This document shows, piece after piece, positions 24,067 through 62,462 of a stretch of 64,000 bases of DNA (position 1 is the stretch's first letter; each line of letters starts with the position of its first letter). The DNA lies in the NCBI GenBank assembly GCA_040387795.1, contig JAZKDC010000027.1:85845-149844 (forward strand), in the 5' to 3' direction. Below the pieces are notes generated by a model, which saw nothing but the letters and a program-made list of their open reading frames with translations, was not told where the DNA came from and did not search any database. This DNA comes from Verrucomicrobiota bacterium. Lineage in GTDB: Bacteria > Verrucomicrobiota > Verrucomicrobiia > Verrucomicrobiales > V1-33. The translations under genes and the position numbers were made by a program.

Positions 24067-25467
24067 TCAGATTTGCACGGCAGCAGGCAGCACGCGCCCG
24101 ATTTCCTCCACCCTCATGCCAAAGCCGGGACCATGGATGGTTTCCAAGTCCACCCGGCCATTCCGGCGTTGGTAAAGGCCGGGGTGGACCACTGCTTCGG
24201 CGGCGGAGGCTGCGGGGTAAAACTGCATGCTGTTGGTCTCCACGCCGGCAATGGTCGGGGCGTGCGCTGCGAGCAGGCAATGAGGGATCTGGGCGAGCAT
24301 CGGATTGGTCAGGTCCTGCACCATCAGCGTCATCCCATGAGCCTGGGCCCAGCACAGGCTGAGCAGGGCTCCGGTCTGGGTCTTGCAGGTTTTCAAAGCT
24401 ACCCCGGTCCAGCCAAGCGAGCGGCCCAGCCGGACGTGCTGCCAGTCGTGGGCGCTTTCATCAAGAAAGAGCGGACGGCGGGCACTCACGGACTGCACCG
24501 GAATGGGATGCGTCTCCAGCTCATAAGGGAAAGGCTGCTCCACGTATAACAGCAGGGCGAAAATGCGGGGTTCATCGTCACGGAGACGGTCGAGGATTTC
24601 GGTGACGTAGTCAGGGTCGGTGACGGTGCAGTTGAAGTCAGCCGTGAGCCAAAGAACCTCCTGCGCCAGGGCACAACGGCCCACCCGGACCATCCGGTCG
24701 TAATCCCATGCGGCATCATTCCCCCGCAGCTTGATCTTGAGCGCCTGCAAGCCATCGCGCCGGATCCAGTCGGCGAGCAGCACCGGATGGCCATCGTCCG
24801 GCTCCCCGCCCGTCAAATCAGCGGCATCAATGGCATCAAGCCCGCCCACCAGATGCCAGGCCATGAGTTGCTCCCAGCGCTGCGGGCGCAGGAAATCAGC
24901 CGGGTATTTTCCCGCGAACGACAGACTGCCCGCACGGTCTCCGGCCGGCGTCAGAAAATCCGCCAGATCCCGGCTCATCCACGGGGAGCGGTAGGTTTCG
25001 TAAACCGGCACTTCGTTCACCCGGCCGTAGGCATCGTGAACTGCCAAGTCAAACAACGAGGCACAAACCAAGGCCGCCAGCCAGGGCAATGCCTCTGCCG
25101 CGGGACGGCCTGCATTCCAAACGGTCCACTCCTCCCGCAGAGTATGGCTGATGAAATCCTGCCCGCACTCCAAGGCATGCCCGGACACCCCGCAAGCCGG
25201 CCAGGCCTTCGCCAGCCTGACACAAAAATCCTGCAAAGCGTCCTGACGCTTCGCATAAGGCAACACCGAAGGCCAGACCCACTGCACGCTGAGCGGCGTC
25301 TCACCCCATCCCTCCGCCTCCCGCCCATCCTTCCGCCGCACCCGCAGCCGCGCCCGCGCACAGGTGACTTCCGTCAGGGTTTCGGTACCGAACTTCAGCG
25401 GCACCCGCGTGATGACCGGCAGAAAATAAAGCGCAGCGCCGATGACGGTGATGTCGGTGGGGAGCAT
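24067..25467 (-). CDS. Enolase-superfamily enzyme (mandelate racemase / muconate lactonizing enzyme-like).
   Basis: It has the LKIKLRG KxK catalytic motif and a capping-domain N-terminus (GWGETP). It is probably co-transcribed with the upstream MFS gene. Confidence 0.65.
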   Translation of the reverse strand: MLPTDITVIGAALYFLPVITRVPLKFGTETLTEVTCARARLRVRRKDGREAEGWGETPLSVQWVWPSVLPYAKRQDALQDFCVRLAKAWPACGVSGHALECGQDFISHTLREEWTVWNAGRPAAEALPWLAALVCASLFDLAVHDAYGRVNEVPVYETYRSPWMSRDLADFLTPAGDRAGSLSFAGKYPADFLRPQRWEQLMAWHLVGGLDAIDAADLTGGEPDDGHPVLLADWIRRDGLQALKIKLRGNDAAWDYDRMVRVGRCALAQEVLWLTADFNCTVTDPDYVTEILDRLRDDEPRIFALLLYVEQPFPYELETHPIPVQSVSARRPLFLDESAHDWQHVRLGRSLGWTGVALKTCKTQTGALLSLCWAQAHGMTLMVQDLTNPMLAQIPHCLLAAHAPTIAGVETNSMQFYPAASAAEAVVHPGLYQRRNGRVDLETIHGPGFGMRVEEIGRVLPAAVQI

Positions 25468-33019: not shown

Positions 33020-33509
33020 ATGTTGTGTTTTCTCCTGTTTTTTGTGGTGATGGCCCGAACCCCGCACTGCGGAGTGTGGATCAGGCGATGACGTTCCCTG
33101 GAGGAAAAGAGGCGCTACAGCGCTTCCGGGTTTCCTCCGGTTGGACAGGAGGGAGAACGGGGCGTCGCGGAGTCTCTCAGTGATGCTGACGGAGTTAGCT
33201 GTCGGGCTGGAGCCACTAAGTGCCCCCGACGCCGCAGGCGTCGTTCGCCCCAAGTTGCCGCCGGCAAATGAGCTGGCGGAACGGGATTTGGGTCCCCCGT
33301 GGTCCCGGCGGCGAAGCCGGAACCTTAAGCTGACAAAGAACTGCCCAAGGATAGGGCCGGTTTTTGAAAATGCAAATGAGGTCCGCACAAGTCCCTCAAC
33401 ATGAACGCCAAACTCCTGAACAATAGTCAGCTTTCCAAGCCGGAACCTACGCCAAAAGCATCATTACGGAATGGCGTTGAGGTATCGGCGTCCAACCAGG
33501 CGGGACAGT

Positions 33510-57535: not shown

Positions 57536-57810
57536 TCAGGGGAGGCCCATGGCCGGGGCACGGCAAGTTCAGGATTCCGGCGGCCAGGCTCATGGATTTT
57601 AGCAGGGTGCTGCCGTTTCTTAGTGGGAAATCCCAAGGCTGTAAAATCCAATCTGCCAAAACCCGCCCGGACGTCTGCCGGACAGTCAAGGCCGGGGTGG
57701 ACGAGGCTCCGGCCGAGTCGCATAGCATTGGTAACCAAAGCCTCCGGAAAGCCATCCAGCCGGAACCCGGCAGGAGCCTCGTCCACCCCGGGGCCCTTCA
57801 TGGGCCGGGC

Positions 57811-59343
57811 TCAGCCACCGGTTCCGCGTCCGAAGGGGTTCCCGGCCTGCTGGTAGAGGGCCATTTGCTCCGGTGTCAGAATGGCCTTGAGAGCGTCCTG
57901 ACGGTCAGCCCAGCGGGCGGCCACGGCCTCCTGGATGGCATCCGCCTCTTTGGCAGGATCCAGGACGGGCAGCATGGACTCTCTGGACGCAATTTCCGAA
58001 AAGGCGGCAAAGGCCTGGTCCTTTTGCTCCGGGGAGAGGGTCGTCATGGACTGCAGGTTGGAGAGCTCGCGGTTCGCGACCGCTTCCAGGGCATTGGCCT
58101 TTTCTTCCGCAAGGAAGGACTCGTATTCCTCCTGCTGACCGGCGGTGAGGGAAGCGCTGATGGCGTCGTCCATTCTCTTAACATCTTCCGGAGTCGCCTT
58201 CGTTACCATGACATTGGGTGGGGAAACCTTCATTTTGGATTGCCCGTATTCGAGCGCTTGGGCGATCCTGGTCTCCTGCTCCGGCGTGAGGGAGAGGCGC
58301 TTTCCCAGAACGGCGAGCTTTTCCTTCACTTTTCCGCGGTTCAGGGCATCAAAGTCCATGGGGCTGCCTTTATCCATCATCGGGCCGGAGCTGCTGGAGG
58401 ATTCCGCCGGAGGGGCCTCCGGCAAGTCCTGGAGTTTGGCAGGAACGGCATCTGCAGAGCCCCTTTCCCCGGCAAAGACAGCGACAGGAGTCTTTTTCGG
58501 GGCGGGAACGGACGCCCTTTGCTGCAGGGACTGGTTTTCCTCCTGCAGGGCGGCGATCCGCTGCTGCTGGTAGACCATCGGGGCGGCGGCGGCGATGACG
58601 AGGGCGGCAGCGAGGGCGACTTTCGTTTTTGTGGTCATGACGGAGGTAGCTAGGGCGGTGGAGGCGGCACCGGTGGCGGTGGGGACCTGGGTGGCGGAGA
58701 TGATTTTCAGGACTGTGGCGGCGGGCAGATCGCGGGGGACGGTGCCTGCCAGCACGGCGGAGAGGGCCCCGGCGGTGCTGGTGATGCCGCGCCGGGCGAG
58801 GATGCGGCGCAGGCGCTCCAGCGCGCGGTTCATGCGCTTTTGCGCGGCATCATCGCTCAATCCGAAAGTCCTTCCGATGCTGCGCCAGTTCTGCTGCTGC
58901 CAGAAGCGCATAAGGAGCAGCTGACTGTCCTGCGGCGGGAGTTTGCTGAGGGCCCCATCGATTTCCGGAGTCAGTTCGTGTCCGCCGTCCCCGGCGTCCG
59001 GTGCAGCAGGTTCTGGCGTGTCCATCATGAGATGTTGCGAAGTTTCCTCCCGGCGCCGCCGGCGCGCCTCATGCCGCAGGGCATCCAGGGTAAGACCCGT
59101 GGCCGCGGCGTGCAGCCATGCCCCGAGCGCGCGGGCGTCCTTCACCTTTTCGGGCGCAGCGGCGAGACGTGAGAAAACGGTCTGCGTGATGTCCTCCGCC
59201 AGCGCATCCTGACCACGGGCGATGCGCAAGGCCGTGGCGTAGACCATGCCGGTCCAGCCCGTCACCAGTTCCCGGAACGCGGTCCCGCAACGGGTGGCCG
59301 CGTAGGCGCGCAGGAGTTCGTGGGACCGTTCGGGAGAGATCAT
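57811..59343 (-). CDS. ECF-type sigma-70 factor fused to a C-terminal transmembrane/coiled-coil/extracytoplasmic extension (paralog of 19986..21494).
   Basis: Region 2: ELLRAYAATRCGTAFRELVTGWTGMVYATALRIA. Region 4: QLLLMRFWQQQNWRSIGRTFGLSDDAAQKRMNRALERL. A TM helix MTTKTKVALAAALVIAAAAPMVY and a coiled coil (RIAALQEENQSLQQR) follow in the same ORF. Confidence 0.7.
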   Translation of the reverse strand: MISPERSHELLRAYAATRCGTAFRELVTGWTGMVYATALRIARGQDALAEDITQTVFSRLAAAPEKVKDARALGAWLHAAATGLTLDALRHEARRRRREETSQHLMMDTPEPAAPDAGDGGHELTPEIDGALSKLPPQDSQLLLMRFWQQQNWRSIGRTFGLSDDAAQKRMNRALERLRRILARRGITSTAGALSAVLAGTVPRDLPAATVLKIISATQVPTATGAASTALATSVMTTKTKVALAAALVIAAAAPMVYQQQRIAALQEENQSLQQRASVPAPKKTPVAVFAGERGSADAVPAKLQDLPEAPPAESSSSSGPMMDKGSPMDFDALNRGKVKEKLAVLGKRLSLTPEQETRIAQALEYGQSKMKVSPPNVMVTKATPEDVKRMDDAISASLTAGQQEEYESFLAEEKANALEAVANRELSNLQSMTTLSPEQKDQAFAAFSEIASRESMLPVLDPAKEADAIQEAVAARWADRQDALKAILTPEQMALYQQAGNPFGRGTGG

Positions 59344-59612
59344 ACTTCGCTTTTCCTATAGTCGGCACGGCGGCGGCCCTTCCGACAAAAAAGTTCACGG
59401 GAGAGCTTAACCCGTTACGGGCGGAAGGCCAAGGGCAGCACCAGCCCGGCCGGACCGCGGATGAGCGCCCAGGAGCTTTTCCCGGTGACGGCAAGGCGTC
59501 ACACTCGTTACCCTGGATCTGACCCGCCACCCCGGGGAAGGCGGCCCGCGAATCGTTCAACCACCGTTATCATCGGGGCTGCGCCCGACGATCACCATGG
59601 TCATTAGGCGCT

Positions 59613-59921
59613 TTATTCATCTTTCAGGAAAGACTTGGTGAGAACAAATGCCTCAGTCTCGCTTCCGCAAACAATCGAACTGCGCGCTTCGCTCCAACTG
59701 GGGTAAGCCCACTGAGGATCTCCATCTTTTTTCTTCAGAAACTCCAAGACAAAGTGGGCACTCTTCTTCTTTACGACGCAGAGGTGGTCGCCTTCGCGCA
59801 CGATACCGACAATTTCCGGATGCGCGCTCAGGTCCTTGGCATCCCAGAAGATCGCACCATCAAGCAGTCCGTCTTTGGGGTAATCGGTGAACATTTTCTT
59901 ACGACTAACGTTCAAGCACAC
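59613..59921 (-). CDS. Small hypothetical protein, low-GC islet.
   Basis: ~93-102 aa with protein-like composition. It is in a low-GC segment. Confidence 0.35.
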   Translation of the reverse strand: MCLNVSRKKMFTDYPKDGLLDGAIFWDAKDLSAHPEIVGIVREGDHLCVVKKKSAHFVLEFLKKKDGDPQWAYPSWSEARSSIVCGSETEAFVLTKSFLKDE

Positions 59922-60038
59922 CCACCCTCTGGGCGGGGAGGCGCGTCGAACGCAGAGTGAGGGTTGGAGTTAGAAAAAGGCAAGTGTGACACATCAGCCC
60001 AGAAGGTTGGGTGCCGCGGTTTGTCCGCCTTCGTTGGG

Positions 60039-60446
60039 TTACTGATTGCTGCCTTCGTCATACTTGTTGTTCCACCAGTTCACGGCATCAACGTGCTGAT
60101 CCAGAGAAATCCAAGTGATGTTCTGCGAGCTGGTCGGGTCGCCTCCAAAGATGAGGGGCTGAATATACCACTTCACTTGCCCTCGAATCTTTGGGTCGGG
60201 TTGTATCGCGGTCAGATCGATGTCAAAGGCAGTCTGACGAAGGTGCGTTGGGCGGGCGGGCACGGTAGGCAGGGTGAAGATTGTCCCGTCTGAGTCGCGG
60301 ACGATAAAATCATCCCAACTACAGAGTCCAATAATGGTGTATCCGGGCAAACGCCGATCCAACATGTATCTCTGAGTGATGCGCATGGCTTCCAACTGCT
60401 CATCGAACAGAATGAAATAGTCCTCGTTGTGCCAACCTTCGATCAT
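60039..60446 (-). CDS. Small hypothetical protein (135 aa), possibly SUKH/SMI1-KNR4-like immunity-type.
   Basis: Low-GC segment. The weak resemblance to SUKH-type immunity proteins (LPGYTIIGLCSWDDFIVRDSDGTIFTL...) is a low-confidence inference. Confidence 0.35.
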   Translation of the reverse strand: MIEGWHNEDYFILFDEQLEAMRITQRYMLDRRLPGYTIIGLCSWDDFIVRDSDGTIFTLPTVPARPTHLRQTAFDIDLTAIQPDPKIRGQVKWYIQPLIFGGDPTSSQNITWISLDQHVDAVNWWNNKYDEGSNQ

Positions 60447-60615
60447 GAGTTCTGCGAGCGGTGCGTTGAGTTCAACTAACGACCAAGCTCAGCGACCGCC
60501 GCCGGAAACGCCCGGTCGGCTGCAACAATCGCGAGCAAATTATCCGAACCGTCAAACTGCCCAGCGGGGCGGCGGTTAGCTGCAGCGTTCTGGTTCGGCC
60601 ACGTCATCGTCATAC

Positions 60616-61059
60616 TCACTTTTTTTCTACCGGGCCGACATCCATACCGTCATAGGACTCCAACTCAAACTTCTCTGCGAGCTTGTAGAATTCGGAGTTG
60701 CGGGCATGCAATGTCTGTGGTGTGTGCTTTTCAACTCGCTCGACATGGAGAAAGTGGGTGCTCTTGTCTTCCGTCTCAAAAAGTCTGACGAAACGATAGC
60801 CACCGTTCGTGAGTGGCTCGACTACACGCTCCAACTTCTTCGGGTCAGAATCCGTGAAGAAATAACCCCACAGCATCTCACCATCAACGTCCCACTTCGA
60901 CGTGGTGCGCATGTTGCTGAACATGTCCTCGATGGATTGCAGGGTAATTACAGTCTTCTGTTTTTGGTGTGTGGGCTGGGTTGGCGCTGGCTGCTTGCTG
61001 CATCCGCCGAAAAGAAATGAGAGTAATCCCATAATCACGATGAAGTGTCTTAGTGACAT
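60616..61059 (-). CDS. Small lipoprotein (147 aa), weak RraB-like/DUF695 resemblance.
   Basis: Lipobox LLSFLFGGCS. Low-GC segment. Confidence 0.4.
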   Translation of the reverse strand: MSLRHFIVIMGLLSFLFGGCSKQPAPTQPTHQKQKTVITLQSIEDMFSNMRTTSKWDVDGEMLWGYFFTDSDPKKLERVVEPLTNGGYRFVRLFETEDKSTHFLHVERVEKHTPQTLHARNSEFYKLAEKFELESYDGMDVGPVEKK

Positions 61060-61323
61060 GAGCGCGTGGAGTGGCCTAACTACTGATTCACCGACAGGAT
61101 TGCAGGAGAGTGCTCAACCTTATCTCCAGCAGGAATGTCGGGGGAATACGGAATCATGGGCTTGCGGGTGGAAATGGGTGCTGGATTTCCTGCATGGTGA
61201 GGGCAATGCCGCAAAGATGCCAGAAAAACCTCCAAAGACGGCAGAAACCGGGATGTCGATTTTCACCAAGGCGTCGGGTGCCGGGGCCGGTGGGGGTGAA
61301 GCTGGAGGATCGGCTTAGGGGAA

Positions 61324-61550
61324 CCCCTTTGGACTGCGGGCAGCCTTGCTGCCGCTTTCCGCAGGCAGCCTTGCTGCCGTAGAGCGTGGCTATGCTTCCT
61401 GCTGGTTTGGATCTTTGGCATAGTCCATCTTTGACACGGTGCCGGATGGCTTCCTCCGGGGCCCGGCGTGAGGGGAAGGTCTGCCCTGGTCCGACGCCAG
61501 CAGGGCTGGCTGGAGAAAGCGGCAGCAAGGCTGCCCGCAGTCCAAAGGGG
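61324..61550. repeat. 36-bp perfect inverted repeat pair (61324-61359 / 61515-61550) flanking a 155-bp spacer. It may be a MITE-like element or a structured RNA.
   Basis: cccctttggactgcgggcagccttgctgccgctttc is exactly reverse-complemented as gaaagcggcagcaaggctgcccgcagtccaaagggg. The spacer begins with a second direct copy of cagccttgctgccg. Each arm contains a small internal palindrome gcagc-ctt-gctgc. Confidence 0.85.
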
Positions 61551-61933
61551 CAGTGCCCCGGAAGCTCTCCCCCCGGCCACCCGGGCTCTTTGCTGAAAAT
61601 GAAAACCCCGCCGCCATGAGCACCAGGCGACGGGCCCACGCTCGCCAGCGCCCTGTCAGTGACTGCCATATCACGGATAGGAGCACCGGAACGCCGTGCG
61701 GGACCTGCTGTTAAAAATGTTGCCCCATTTGGTGCCGGCGTTCATCAAGTGGAGGCCTCCCTGTGGTCAACAGGTTGGGTCCAAGTGATCACGGGAGCCC
61801 GCCTGTTGATCACGAAAAGGCGGACTCTTGATGAAGAGGAGGTCAACTCGTGGTCACGAAATGGGATAATACGGGGCCACTTTTTCCAGTTTGGTCGAAT
61901 CTGGTCAGGAAGGATGCGGCATTCCATCAGGGC

Positions 61934-62299
61934 TCATGCAAGCTCTGGCGGCCACTGCCGGAACACGACACATACTCCGGTCCGGTCCAGCAGGGAGAAT
62001 TCCAAAGCGCCCCAGGGGCGCTTGGTGACCCGGGGGAGGTTGGGGTGGAGCAGGTCGGGCCGCCGGGTGGAGATGTCCTGGTGGATCCCGTCGATGTTGT
62101 CGGTCTCGATGGCGATCTCCGGCCGGTCCTTGGCGGCATCCTCCGGACTTTCCATGACGTAGGCCTTCGCGCCATCCCGGCCCACGACGGCCAAGGTGGC
62201 GTCCTGGTGGAGCACGGTGAAGCCCAGGCCATTCACGAAGAGGTCGAGTCCTTCCTCCATGTAGTTGAAGAAGATCTTGGGAATAAGTCGGAGCATCAT
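61934..62299 (-). CDS. VOC (glyoxalase/bleomycin-resistance) family protein.
   Basis: 121 aa. The beta-alpha-beta-beta-beta pattern and a family-like motif (FTVLHQD...) are present. It sits divergent to the ABC ATPase gene. Confidence 0.55.
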   Translation of the reverse strand: MMLRLIPKIFFNYMEEGLDLFVNGLGFTVLHQDATLAVVGRDGAKAYVMESPEDAAKDRPEIAIETDNIDGIHQDISTRRPDLLHPNLPRVTKRPWGALEFSLLDRTGVCVVFRQWPPELA

Positions 62300-62462
62300 A
62301 CGGGCGGTATTATGATTTTGATATGCGGCATCCCTGGCAGGGCTGCAAGAAAAACCTCAACGACTGGCGGGAAACGGGGGCGGGGCCGGACCGGTGATTT
62401 CGGGTGCCTGCCCGCTGGCGGGGGAGGGAAAGCCGTGTCTTCTTCCGGATCTGATTTCCGCC

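Follow-up and report, generated by a model that had tools for sequence, protein, structure and literature searches.

A palindromic element in a Verrucomicrobiota genome is very probably a REPIN of a RAYT-associated repeat family

Near the end of the window analyzed here (the whole 64-kb stretch of DNA), two 36-nt arms, located at 61324-61359 on the plus strand and at 61515-61550 on the minus strand with 155 nt between them, are perfect inverted copies of each other, which raises the question of what kind of element they delimit. The earlier note had reported these perfect inverted repeats and their spacing, a mini-palindrome within each arm, a second tandem copy of the hairpin unit and a surrounding non-coding stretch of about 0.9 kb. 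All of these were confirmed, with the tandem copy found as a direct repeat at 61361-61379 and the non-coding gap measuring approximately 0.87 kb (61060-61933). Exactly two matches to the 36-mer CCCCTTTGGACTGCGGGCAGCCTTGCTGCCGCTTTC are present in the 64-kb window, with no others even when three mismatches were allowed, and its inverted match was reproduced in none of 100 dinucleotide shuffles. Complementarity was observed to run further inward, giving 57-nt arms (61324-61380 and 61494-61550) at 91%, and the inclusion of the outer hairpins GGGGAACCCC and GGGGCAGTGCCCC extends the element to 61318-61559. Depending on these outer hairpins, the non-coding element has a size of 227-242 bp. The hairpin unit GC(R)GGCAGCCTTGCTGCCG is found three times, at 61336 and 61361 and, inverted, at 61520. 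The parts of the element are as follows, with hairpins assigned from the fold of single-stranded DNA (ssDNA).

61318-61559, no strand assigned: whole element, read here as REPIN-type (REP doublet plus outer hairpins), 242 bp, sub-part coordinates checked
61318-61327, plus strand: left outer hairpin GGGG-AA-CCCC (ssDNA fold)
61328-61335, plus strand: left single-stranded tag TTTGGACT, between the outer and main hairpins
61336-61355, plus strand: left main REP hairpin GCGG(G)CAGC-CTT-GCTGCCGC, also written GCGGGCAGC-CTT-GCTGCCGC (ssDNA fold)
61361-61380, plus strand: left inner hairpin GGCAGC-CTT-GCTGCC, a direct repeat and the "second tandem copy" of the earlier note
61381-61493, no strand assigned: core or spacer, 113 bp, with no similarity to cores elsewhere in the family
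61494-61513, minus strand: right inner hairpin GCCAGC-CCT-GCTGGC, as read on the minus strand (ssDNA fold)
61519-61538, minus strand: right main REP hairpin (ssDNA fold)
61539-61546, minus strand: right tag, AGTCCAAA on the plus strand and TTTGGACT on the minus strand (coordinates checked)
61547-61559, minus strand: right outer hairpin GGGGC-AGT-GCCCC (ssDNA fold)

In the ssDNA fold each arm forms a three-hairpin module, composed of an outer hairpin, a single-stranded tag, a main hairpin and an inner hairpin. The left outer hairpin position is occupied in relatives by GGGC-GCA-GCCC or GCGGC-GCA-GCCGC, and the right one by GGGGC-TGC-GCCCC in L013, a more distant MAG that also carries the element. 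Across the family, the tag has the consensus TTGGA[G/C]T, conserved in 153 arms, and in a 34-arm alignment the columns TGGA.TGC were invariant. The main hairpin of the family has a GCGGCAGC/GCTGCCGC stem and a C(Y)TG-type loop. Between the left and right inner hairpins there is a compensated difference (GGCAGC/GCTGCC versus GCCAGC/GCTGGC), by which the local inner stems are kept while the long helix between the arms is broken. Judged from the sequences, the preserved structure is that of the local hairpins and not of one long hairpin.

The same alignment, for which part of the 34 arms were hand-picked, was used to follow covariation in the stems. In the main stem all cells were paired, with compensatory changes in four of the seven pairs and variants that included GCTACAGC/GCTGTAGC, GCGGGAGC/GCTCCCGC and GCGACAGC/GCTGTCGC. 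The diversity sampled for this stem is biased because the pattern used in the metagenome search fixed most of it. The inner stem showed changes on both sides in six of seven pairs, and the 161 unique arms contained 50 different inner hairpins, many with a CTTG or CCTG apex. All five pairs of the outer helix showed compensatory changes, yet just 58% of its cells were paired. The observed covariation scores were matched by none of 500 shuffles, and slid registers scored lower. On this alignment, covariation supports local hairpins inside each arm and not a single long RNA fold.

Additional copies were found at other loci in other genomes, while the window holds one doublet only, as a PVC-specific arm HMM run with filters off detected no degenerate extra copies in its 64 kb. 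The genome collection was scanned with the 19-nt hairpin as the query. A copy with 94% identity is present in L026 (OW818657.1), a syntenic relative at approximately 95% identity, a further copy was recovered in L013, and Haloferula sp. BvORR071 has at least four dispersed loci, with six arms on four contigs (L012, L031, L040 and L057). An Acidoferrum MAG (L045) and an uncultured Haloferula (L071) gave arm matches as well. In Haloferula sp. BvORR071 two elements are complete (L012 and L057); these and L071 have the same arms with cores unrelated to that of the window, as is also the case for the core of L213, and L012 and L057 have one core type in common. The architecture of the whole element, a REP doublet with outer hairpins, was additionally recognized in L013, L026, L012, L057, L071, L213 and L215-L217.

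A metagenome scan with a tag-plus-hairpin pattern gave at least 120 loci, and seven contigs of a viral collection matched the same pattern. With the arm HMM, at least 292 arms were counted in at least 193 loci, and the hosts of the family are Verrucomicrobiota, Planctomycetota and Acidobacteriota genomes and metagenomes. Most loci are inverted doublets, and their cores are unrelated. Amongst 99 adjacent arm pairs, 67 were inverted with the tags outward, and the other orientations accounted for 19, 7 and 6 pairs. Doublets vary in length between about 80 and 260 bp across the family, with acidobacterial doublets mostly at 110-145 bp, those of the window, L013 and L026 at about 225 bp, and those of Haloferula at about 260 bp.

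The element occupies a homologous site in all three genomes that have its core type (the window, L026 and L013), where it is conserved together with about 100 nt on each side; L026 retains the flanks, and L013 retains them in part. When the window was compared with L013, the arms were 100% and 96.5% identical, the core 82.3% and the adjoining flanks 68-79%, and in the comparison with L026 the arms were 98-100% and the core 88.5% identical. Because the identity of the arms exceeds that of the core and flanks, the arms are under constraint or homogenized, and the core is no different in this respect from the DNA around it. The neighboring ABC-ATPase gene, whose named relatives belong to Verrucomicrobiota/Verrucomicrobiales, was used to find close relatives (L218-L222), amongst which no clean empty site or insertion polymorphism was seen: L218 is missing a whole 4.3-kb segment and not the element alone, and L219-L222 are not syntenic upstream.

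Clustering of the ORFs from 134 family loci identified Y1 transposases as the sole recurrent neighbor. At L096, two family doublets enclose a 195-aa ORF, which matches the NCBIfam model NF047646 ("REP-associated tyrosine transposase") with 83.1 bits against a cutoff of 80. This RAYT has 2883 homologues with source names from Terriglobia, and a related clade seeded from L165 comprises 490, named as from Planctomycetes and Verrucomicrobia. In addition to L096 and L165, the neighborhoods of six further members were retrieved, and all eight RAYT loci examined (L096, L209-211, L202-208, L212, L213/214, L215, L216/217 and L165) were flanked by family units. The L213/214 locus is from Verrucomicrobia and has doublets of about 210 bp with the architecture of the window. 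The arrangements recorded for individual RAYTs were as follows.

P0009: doublets on both sides
P0078: single units with the outer hairpin, tags toward the gene
P0106: two units downstream
P0185 (Verrucomicrobia MAG): doublets of about 210 bp with exactly the architecture of the window
P0202: covarying GCTACAGC stem in a flanking unit
P0129 (Planctomycetaceae): flanked by family units

Such an arrangement, the REPtron, has been described for REP/RAYT systems (PMC6006769; PMC3733652). The HUH motif of these RAYTs has the form H-Y-H (NHYHF) and is accompanied by the tyrosine motif YVHxNAVHH, and both are conserved in seven of the eight. The verrucomicrobial RAYT of L165 has H-Y-P instead of H-U-H and falls below the NCBIfam cutoff; by its sequence this copy looks degenerate and may be inactive. 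In the 64-kb window itself, tblastn with the eight RAYTs found no credible RAYT, and the best match (24211-24657, E = 0.028), which runs antisense to a 466-aa ORF (24067-25467), was judged spurious.

Three other Y1 transposases were considered as family enzymes and rejected, that of L129 because a different repeat is found at its ends, and those of L130 and L093 because no family arm lies next to the gene. As a separate observation, the end of the L096 RAYT ORF (...LDCGSLLPL) is encoded by the REP arm. Some called RAYT ORFs run into the flanking REP (L096 725-753; L212 at about 330-350), and REP units can therefore contribute terminal ORF residues and give rise to spurious small ORFs.

Amongst known systems, the REPIN or BIME elements with their RAYT (TnpA-REP) of Pseudomonas fluorescens SBW25 and Escherichia coli are like the present element in being inverted doublets of short GC-rich palindromic units around a non-conserved spacer. 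They are dispersed and intergenic, which for the present family was observed in Haloferula sp. BvORR071, and, like this family, they have no target-site duplication and include a single Y1/HUH transposase gene flanked by the same units (the REPtron). The family differs from them in its tag, which is TTGGA(G/C)T and not GT[AG]G, in units with up to three hairpins (outer, main and inner), and in the length of its doublets in Verrucomicrobiota (175-260 bp). Classical REP families are mostly species- or genus-specific, whereas the unit sequence of this family is common to three phyla.

The terms REPIN and REP follow published definitions (PMC6006769; PMC3733652). The 5' GT[AG]G tetranucleotide that serves as a criterion there is lacking in this family, where the conserved unpaired tag is TTGGA(G/C)T, which places the family outside both the GTAG and the CGTC superfamily (PMC3733652). 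GTAG-tagged REP families have been reported in Opitutus terrae, also of Verrucomicrobia, and in Rhodopirellula baltica (Di Nocera et al. 2013, PMC3733652). These resemble the present family in their hosts (the PVC superphylum), in occurring as monomers and dimers, and in lying in some cases beside RAYT genes, but their sequences differ and their tag is GTGG/GTAG. The O. terrae REP-encoded peptides VGPALAAG, GTGVPPV and HGRHARAT (PMC3733652 supplement) have no correspondence to the unit described here, and GCGGCAGC, GCTGCCGC and TTGGAGT were all absent from the supplementary files of PMC3733652.

With regard to the transposase, the motifs suggest that the RAYT resembles the H-Y-H subclass 2.8 and not class 3 of Planctomycetes and Acidobacteria. 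TnpA-Y1 subclass 2.8 (Quentin et al. 2018, PMC6006769) likewise has an HUH motif with a central tyrosine (NHYH), a tyrosine motif of the YIHxNP/YVHxNA type and a REPtron-like arrangement; it was described as cyanobacterial and with canonical GT[AG]G REPs (PMC6006769). Class 3, found in Planctomycetes and Acidobacteria, is characterized by NHVH, a Y....Q motif and a CnGA foot (PMC6006769), which do not fit the RAYT of this family. A search of the full-text literature with the arm sequence returned no relevant paper, and no description of a TTGGA(G/C)T-tagged family was found in the literature on REP/RAYT in these phyla. The family appears to be undescribed and unusually widespread across phyla.

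Altogether, we consider it very probable that the element is a REPIN, that is, two inverted REP units with their tags outward and a non-conserved spacer between them, from a RAYT-associated family whose RAYT would be encoded elsewhere and act on ssDNA hairpins. The repetition, the doublets, the covariation of the hairpins, the lack of target-site duplications and the REPtron association in relatives were all observed directly. By analogy with the E. coli TnpA-REP and the IS200/IS605 transposases, from which the mechanism is taken, the element is probably mobilized or maintained through its ssDNA hairpins. A RAYT from elsewhere in the genome would recognize the hairpins and the tag on single-stranded DNA, for example at a replication fork, and would cleave and rejoin there, by which the doublet could be copied or maintained. 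Such copying or maintenance would explain why the arms stay identical while the core and flanks drift. A secondary effect, which does not exclude this one, may follow if the element is transcribed, as very stable hairpins would then lie between a 121-aa gene and an RraB-family gene and, as with other REPs, could block read-through or exonucleases.

The latter effect leads to the explanation that competes best, according to which the element is a host-co-opted bidirectional terminator, insulator or mRNA-stabilizing hairpin between two co-directional genes. We regard this as unlikely, and it is compatible with a REPIN origin. The element does lie between the 121-aa gene (61934-62299, minus strand) and the RraB-family gene (60616-61059, minus strand), transcription entering from outside meets a GC-rich hairpin followed by TTT at each arm, and REPs reportedly are found mostly downstream of genes and act as RNA elements (PMC3733652). 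Nevertheless, the stems are followed by just three to four T (TTTC), which in neither arm gives the GC stem-loop with at least five U of an intrinsic terminator. The promoter and terminator scan was silent on the arms; its single call was a weak terminator-like site beyond the element, and promoter-like sites were absent from its output. Additionally, a better minus-strand terminator-like hairpin with a T-run at 61594-61634 precedes the element in the direction of transcription, and the conserved TTGGA(G/C)T tag plays no part in termination. A co-opted RNA role is possible but weakly indicated, because the stems have only TTT behind them and the hairpin at 61594-61634 is the better terminator candidate.

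The earlier note had alternatively proposed a structured RNA, and a structured non-coding RNA gene or cis-regulatory RNA with its function in the long hairpin or the 113-nt core would be consistent with several observations. Both strands are far more stable than shuffled controls (RNA minimum free energy of one strand -182.9 kcal/mol, z = -9.2; z = -8.6 for the other), conservation in L026 and L013 covers the element with about 100 nt to either side, and there are a conserved promoter-like motif upstream on the plus strand and the weak terminator-like site after the element (61572-61585). We nevertheless judge this reading to be very improbable and the proposal to be unsupported. The Rfam check with covariance models produced no match at the gathering thresholds, and Rfam 15 searched at E<=10 returned chance generic hairpins only (MIR820, gntR-DTE and others), far below threshold, with MIR820 reaching 40.9 bits against a gathering cutoff of 196. 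The core, where such a function could reside, shows lower conservation than the arms, and other members of the family have unrelated cores. The compensated differences between the inner hairpins keep the local stems and break the long inter-arm helix, the covariation being local only, and the two-fold symmetry leaves no preference for either strand.

The other proposal of the earlier note, a miniature inverted-repeat element, holds in the broad sense, as copies exist elsewhere and a transposase is associated with the family. It fails for a classical MITE, meaning a deletion derivative of an insertion sequence with a DDE transposase that was mobilized in trans by way of its terminal inverted repeats and left target-site duplications, and we give this explanation a very small chance. 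Bacterial MITEs such as Correia/NEMIS, ERIC, RUP and Nezha are of similar size, have terminal inverted repeats, are non-coding and would form a long hairpin if transcribed, and the element shares with them its perfect 36-nt terminal inverted repeats, its 227-242 bp, its non-coding nature and its multiple copies in other genomes. Their termini, however, are plain inverted repeats that match a DDE-type insertion sequence, and target-site duplications accompany them; neither was seen here, where the arms are stacks of covarying REP hairpins. Direct repeats beside the maximal inverted repeat of the window copy measured 0 nt, and amongst 37 doublets the value was 0 nt in 24, 1 nt in 11 and 2 nt in 2. 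The only transposase seen flanked by the arms is the RAYT, of the Y1/HUH and not the DDE type, and the 134 family loci, a limited sample, had Y1 transposases as their only recurrent neighbors and yielded amongst their ORFs no full-length insertion sequence with these termini and a DDE transposase. Finally, a fortuitous palindrome without relatives, which would agree with the single occurrence in the window and with nothing else, has practically no chance of being correct, given that 0/100 shuffles matched it and hundreds of related arms occur elsewhere.

The surroundings of the REPIN differ between relatives. At L218 873-1232, this relative (Ga0502761_0006107, about 94% identical) is without window positions 57615-61937, approximately 4.3 kb that contain, in the window, an ECF-sigma-like gene, a low-GC islet, a leader block and the REPIN, and has about 300 nt of unrelated DNA instead. 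A truncated REP arm, CCCCTTTGGACTGCAGGCAGCCTG (L218 921-945), is located exactly at the left junction of the missing segment, which suggests that REP units mark rearrangement borders. The low-GC islet (59606-61071) differs in its small genes, of which the window has three, L026 two and L013 one. In all three it is bracketed by common conserved non-coding sequences, an arrangement reminiscent of a cassette slot whose leader and tail are fixed. The bracket positions are as follows.

Window: 59558-59603 and 61072-61284
L026: 1328-1540 and about 2687-2820
L013: 897-942 and 1446-1656

The islet gene at 60616-61059 (minus strand) belongs to the RraB family (Pfam, 45.1 bits), and the other islet genes had no Pfam match. 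Nothing convincing was found in the islet in the way of attC-like or other repeats.

Beyond the assignment of this copy as a REPIN, we tentatively raise the possibility that it belongs to an undescribed REPIN superfamily that crosses the phyla Verrucomicrobiota, Planctomycetota and Acidobacteriota. The defining features would be a TTGGA(G/C)T tag between two hairpins and a C(Y)TG-looped GCGGCAGC stem, and the superfamily would travel with an H-Y-H RAYT clade and have actively maintained arms and a role in local rearrangement. If this is true, arms that stay identical despite approximately 20% divergence of their neighborhood would reflect active maintenance by the RAYT or the host and not neutral decay, and the position of units at the borders of strain-variable cassettes suggests the role in local genome rearrangement. 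In practical terms, an odd 227-bp palindrome is assigned to a familiar class, REP/REPIN with RAYT, whose annotation and masking is feasible in the genomes of verrucomicrobia, planctomycetes and acidobacteria, in which repeats of this sort create spurious small ORFs and break assemblies. The kind of element is an ordinary one and opens no new kind of biology. For the study of REPIN-RAYT systems, it offers a non-canonical tag, three-hairpin units and one unit sequence over three phyla, the arms being much better conserved than what surrounds them, which constitute a natural data set for the question of whether selection or RAYT activity maintains REPINs.

Several minor features of the region were also recorded. 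The gene at 61934-62299 (minus strand, 121 aa), which the earlier note took for a VOC gene, had no significant Pfam match (best CppA_N, E = 0.23), and an exact protein look-up of its product returned no record; VOC is a putative label. About 300 nt downstream of this gene and just upstream of the REPIN lies the terminator-like hairpin at 61594-61634 on the minus strand (CCCGTCGCC-loop-GGCGGCGGG followed by GTTTTCATTTTC), which is conserved in L026 and was missed by the terminator scan because its loop is 10 nt long. A motif of about 60 nt, GC(C/A)AGAAAAACCTC(C)AA(A)GAC(T)GGC..AAAC.GGG...GGGGCCGG, is present twice on the plus strand, just before the REPIN (61219-61290) and just before the ABC-ATPase gene (62345-62400), and also in L013 and L026. 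It could be a promoter or a regulator site, with an orientation that is inconsistent relative to the neighboring genes. Further away in the window, a c-di-AMP riboswitch (ydaO/yuaA leader, RF00379) was identified at 33169-33341 on the minus strand, with 53.8 bits against a gathering threshold of 38.
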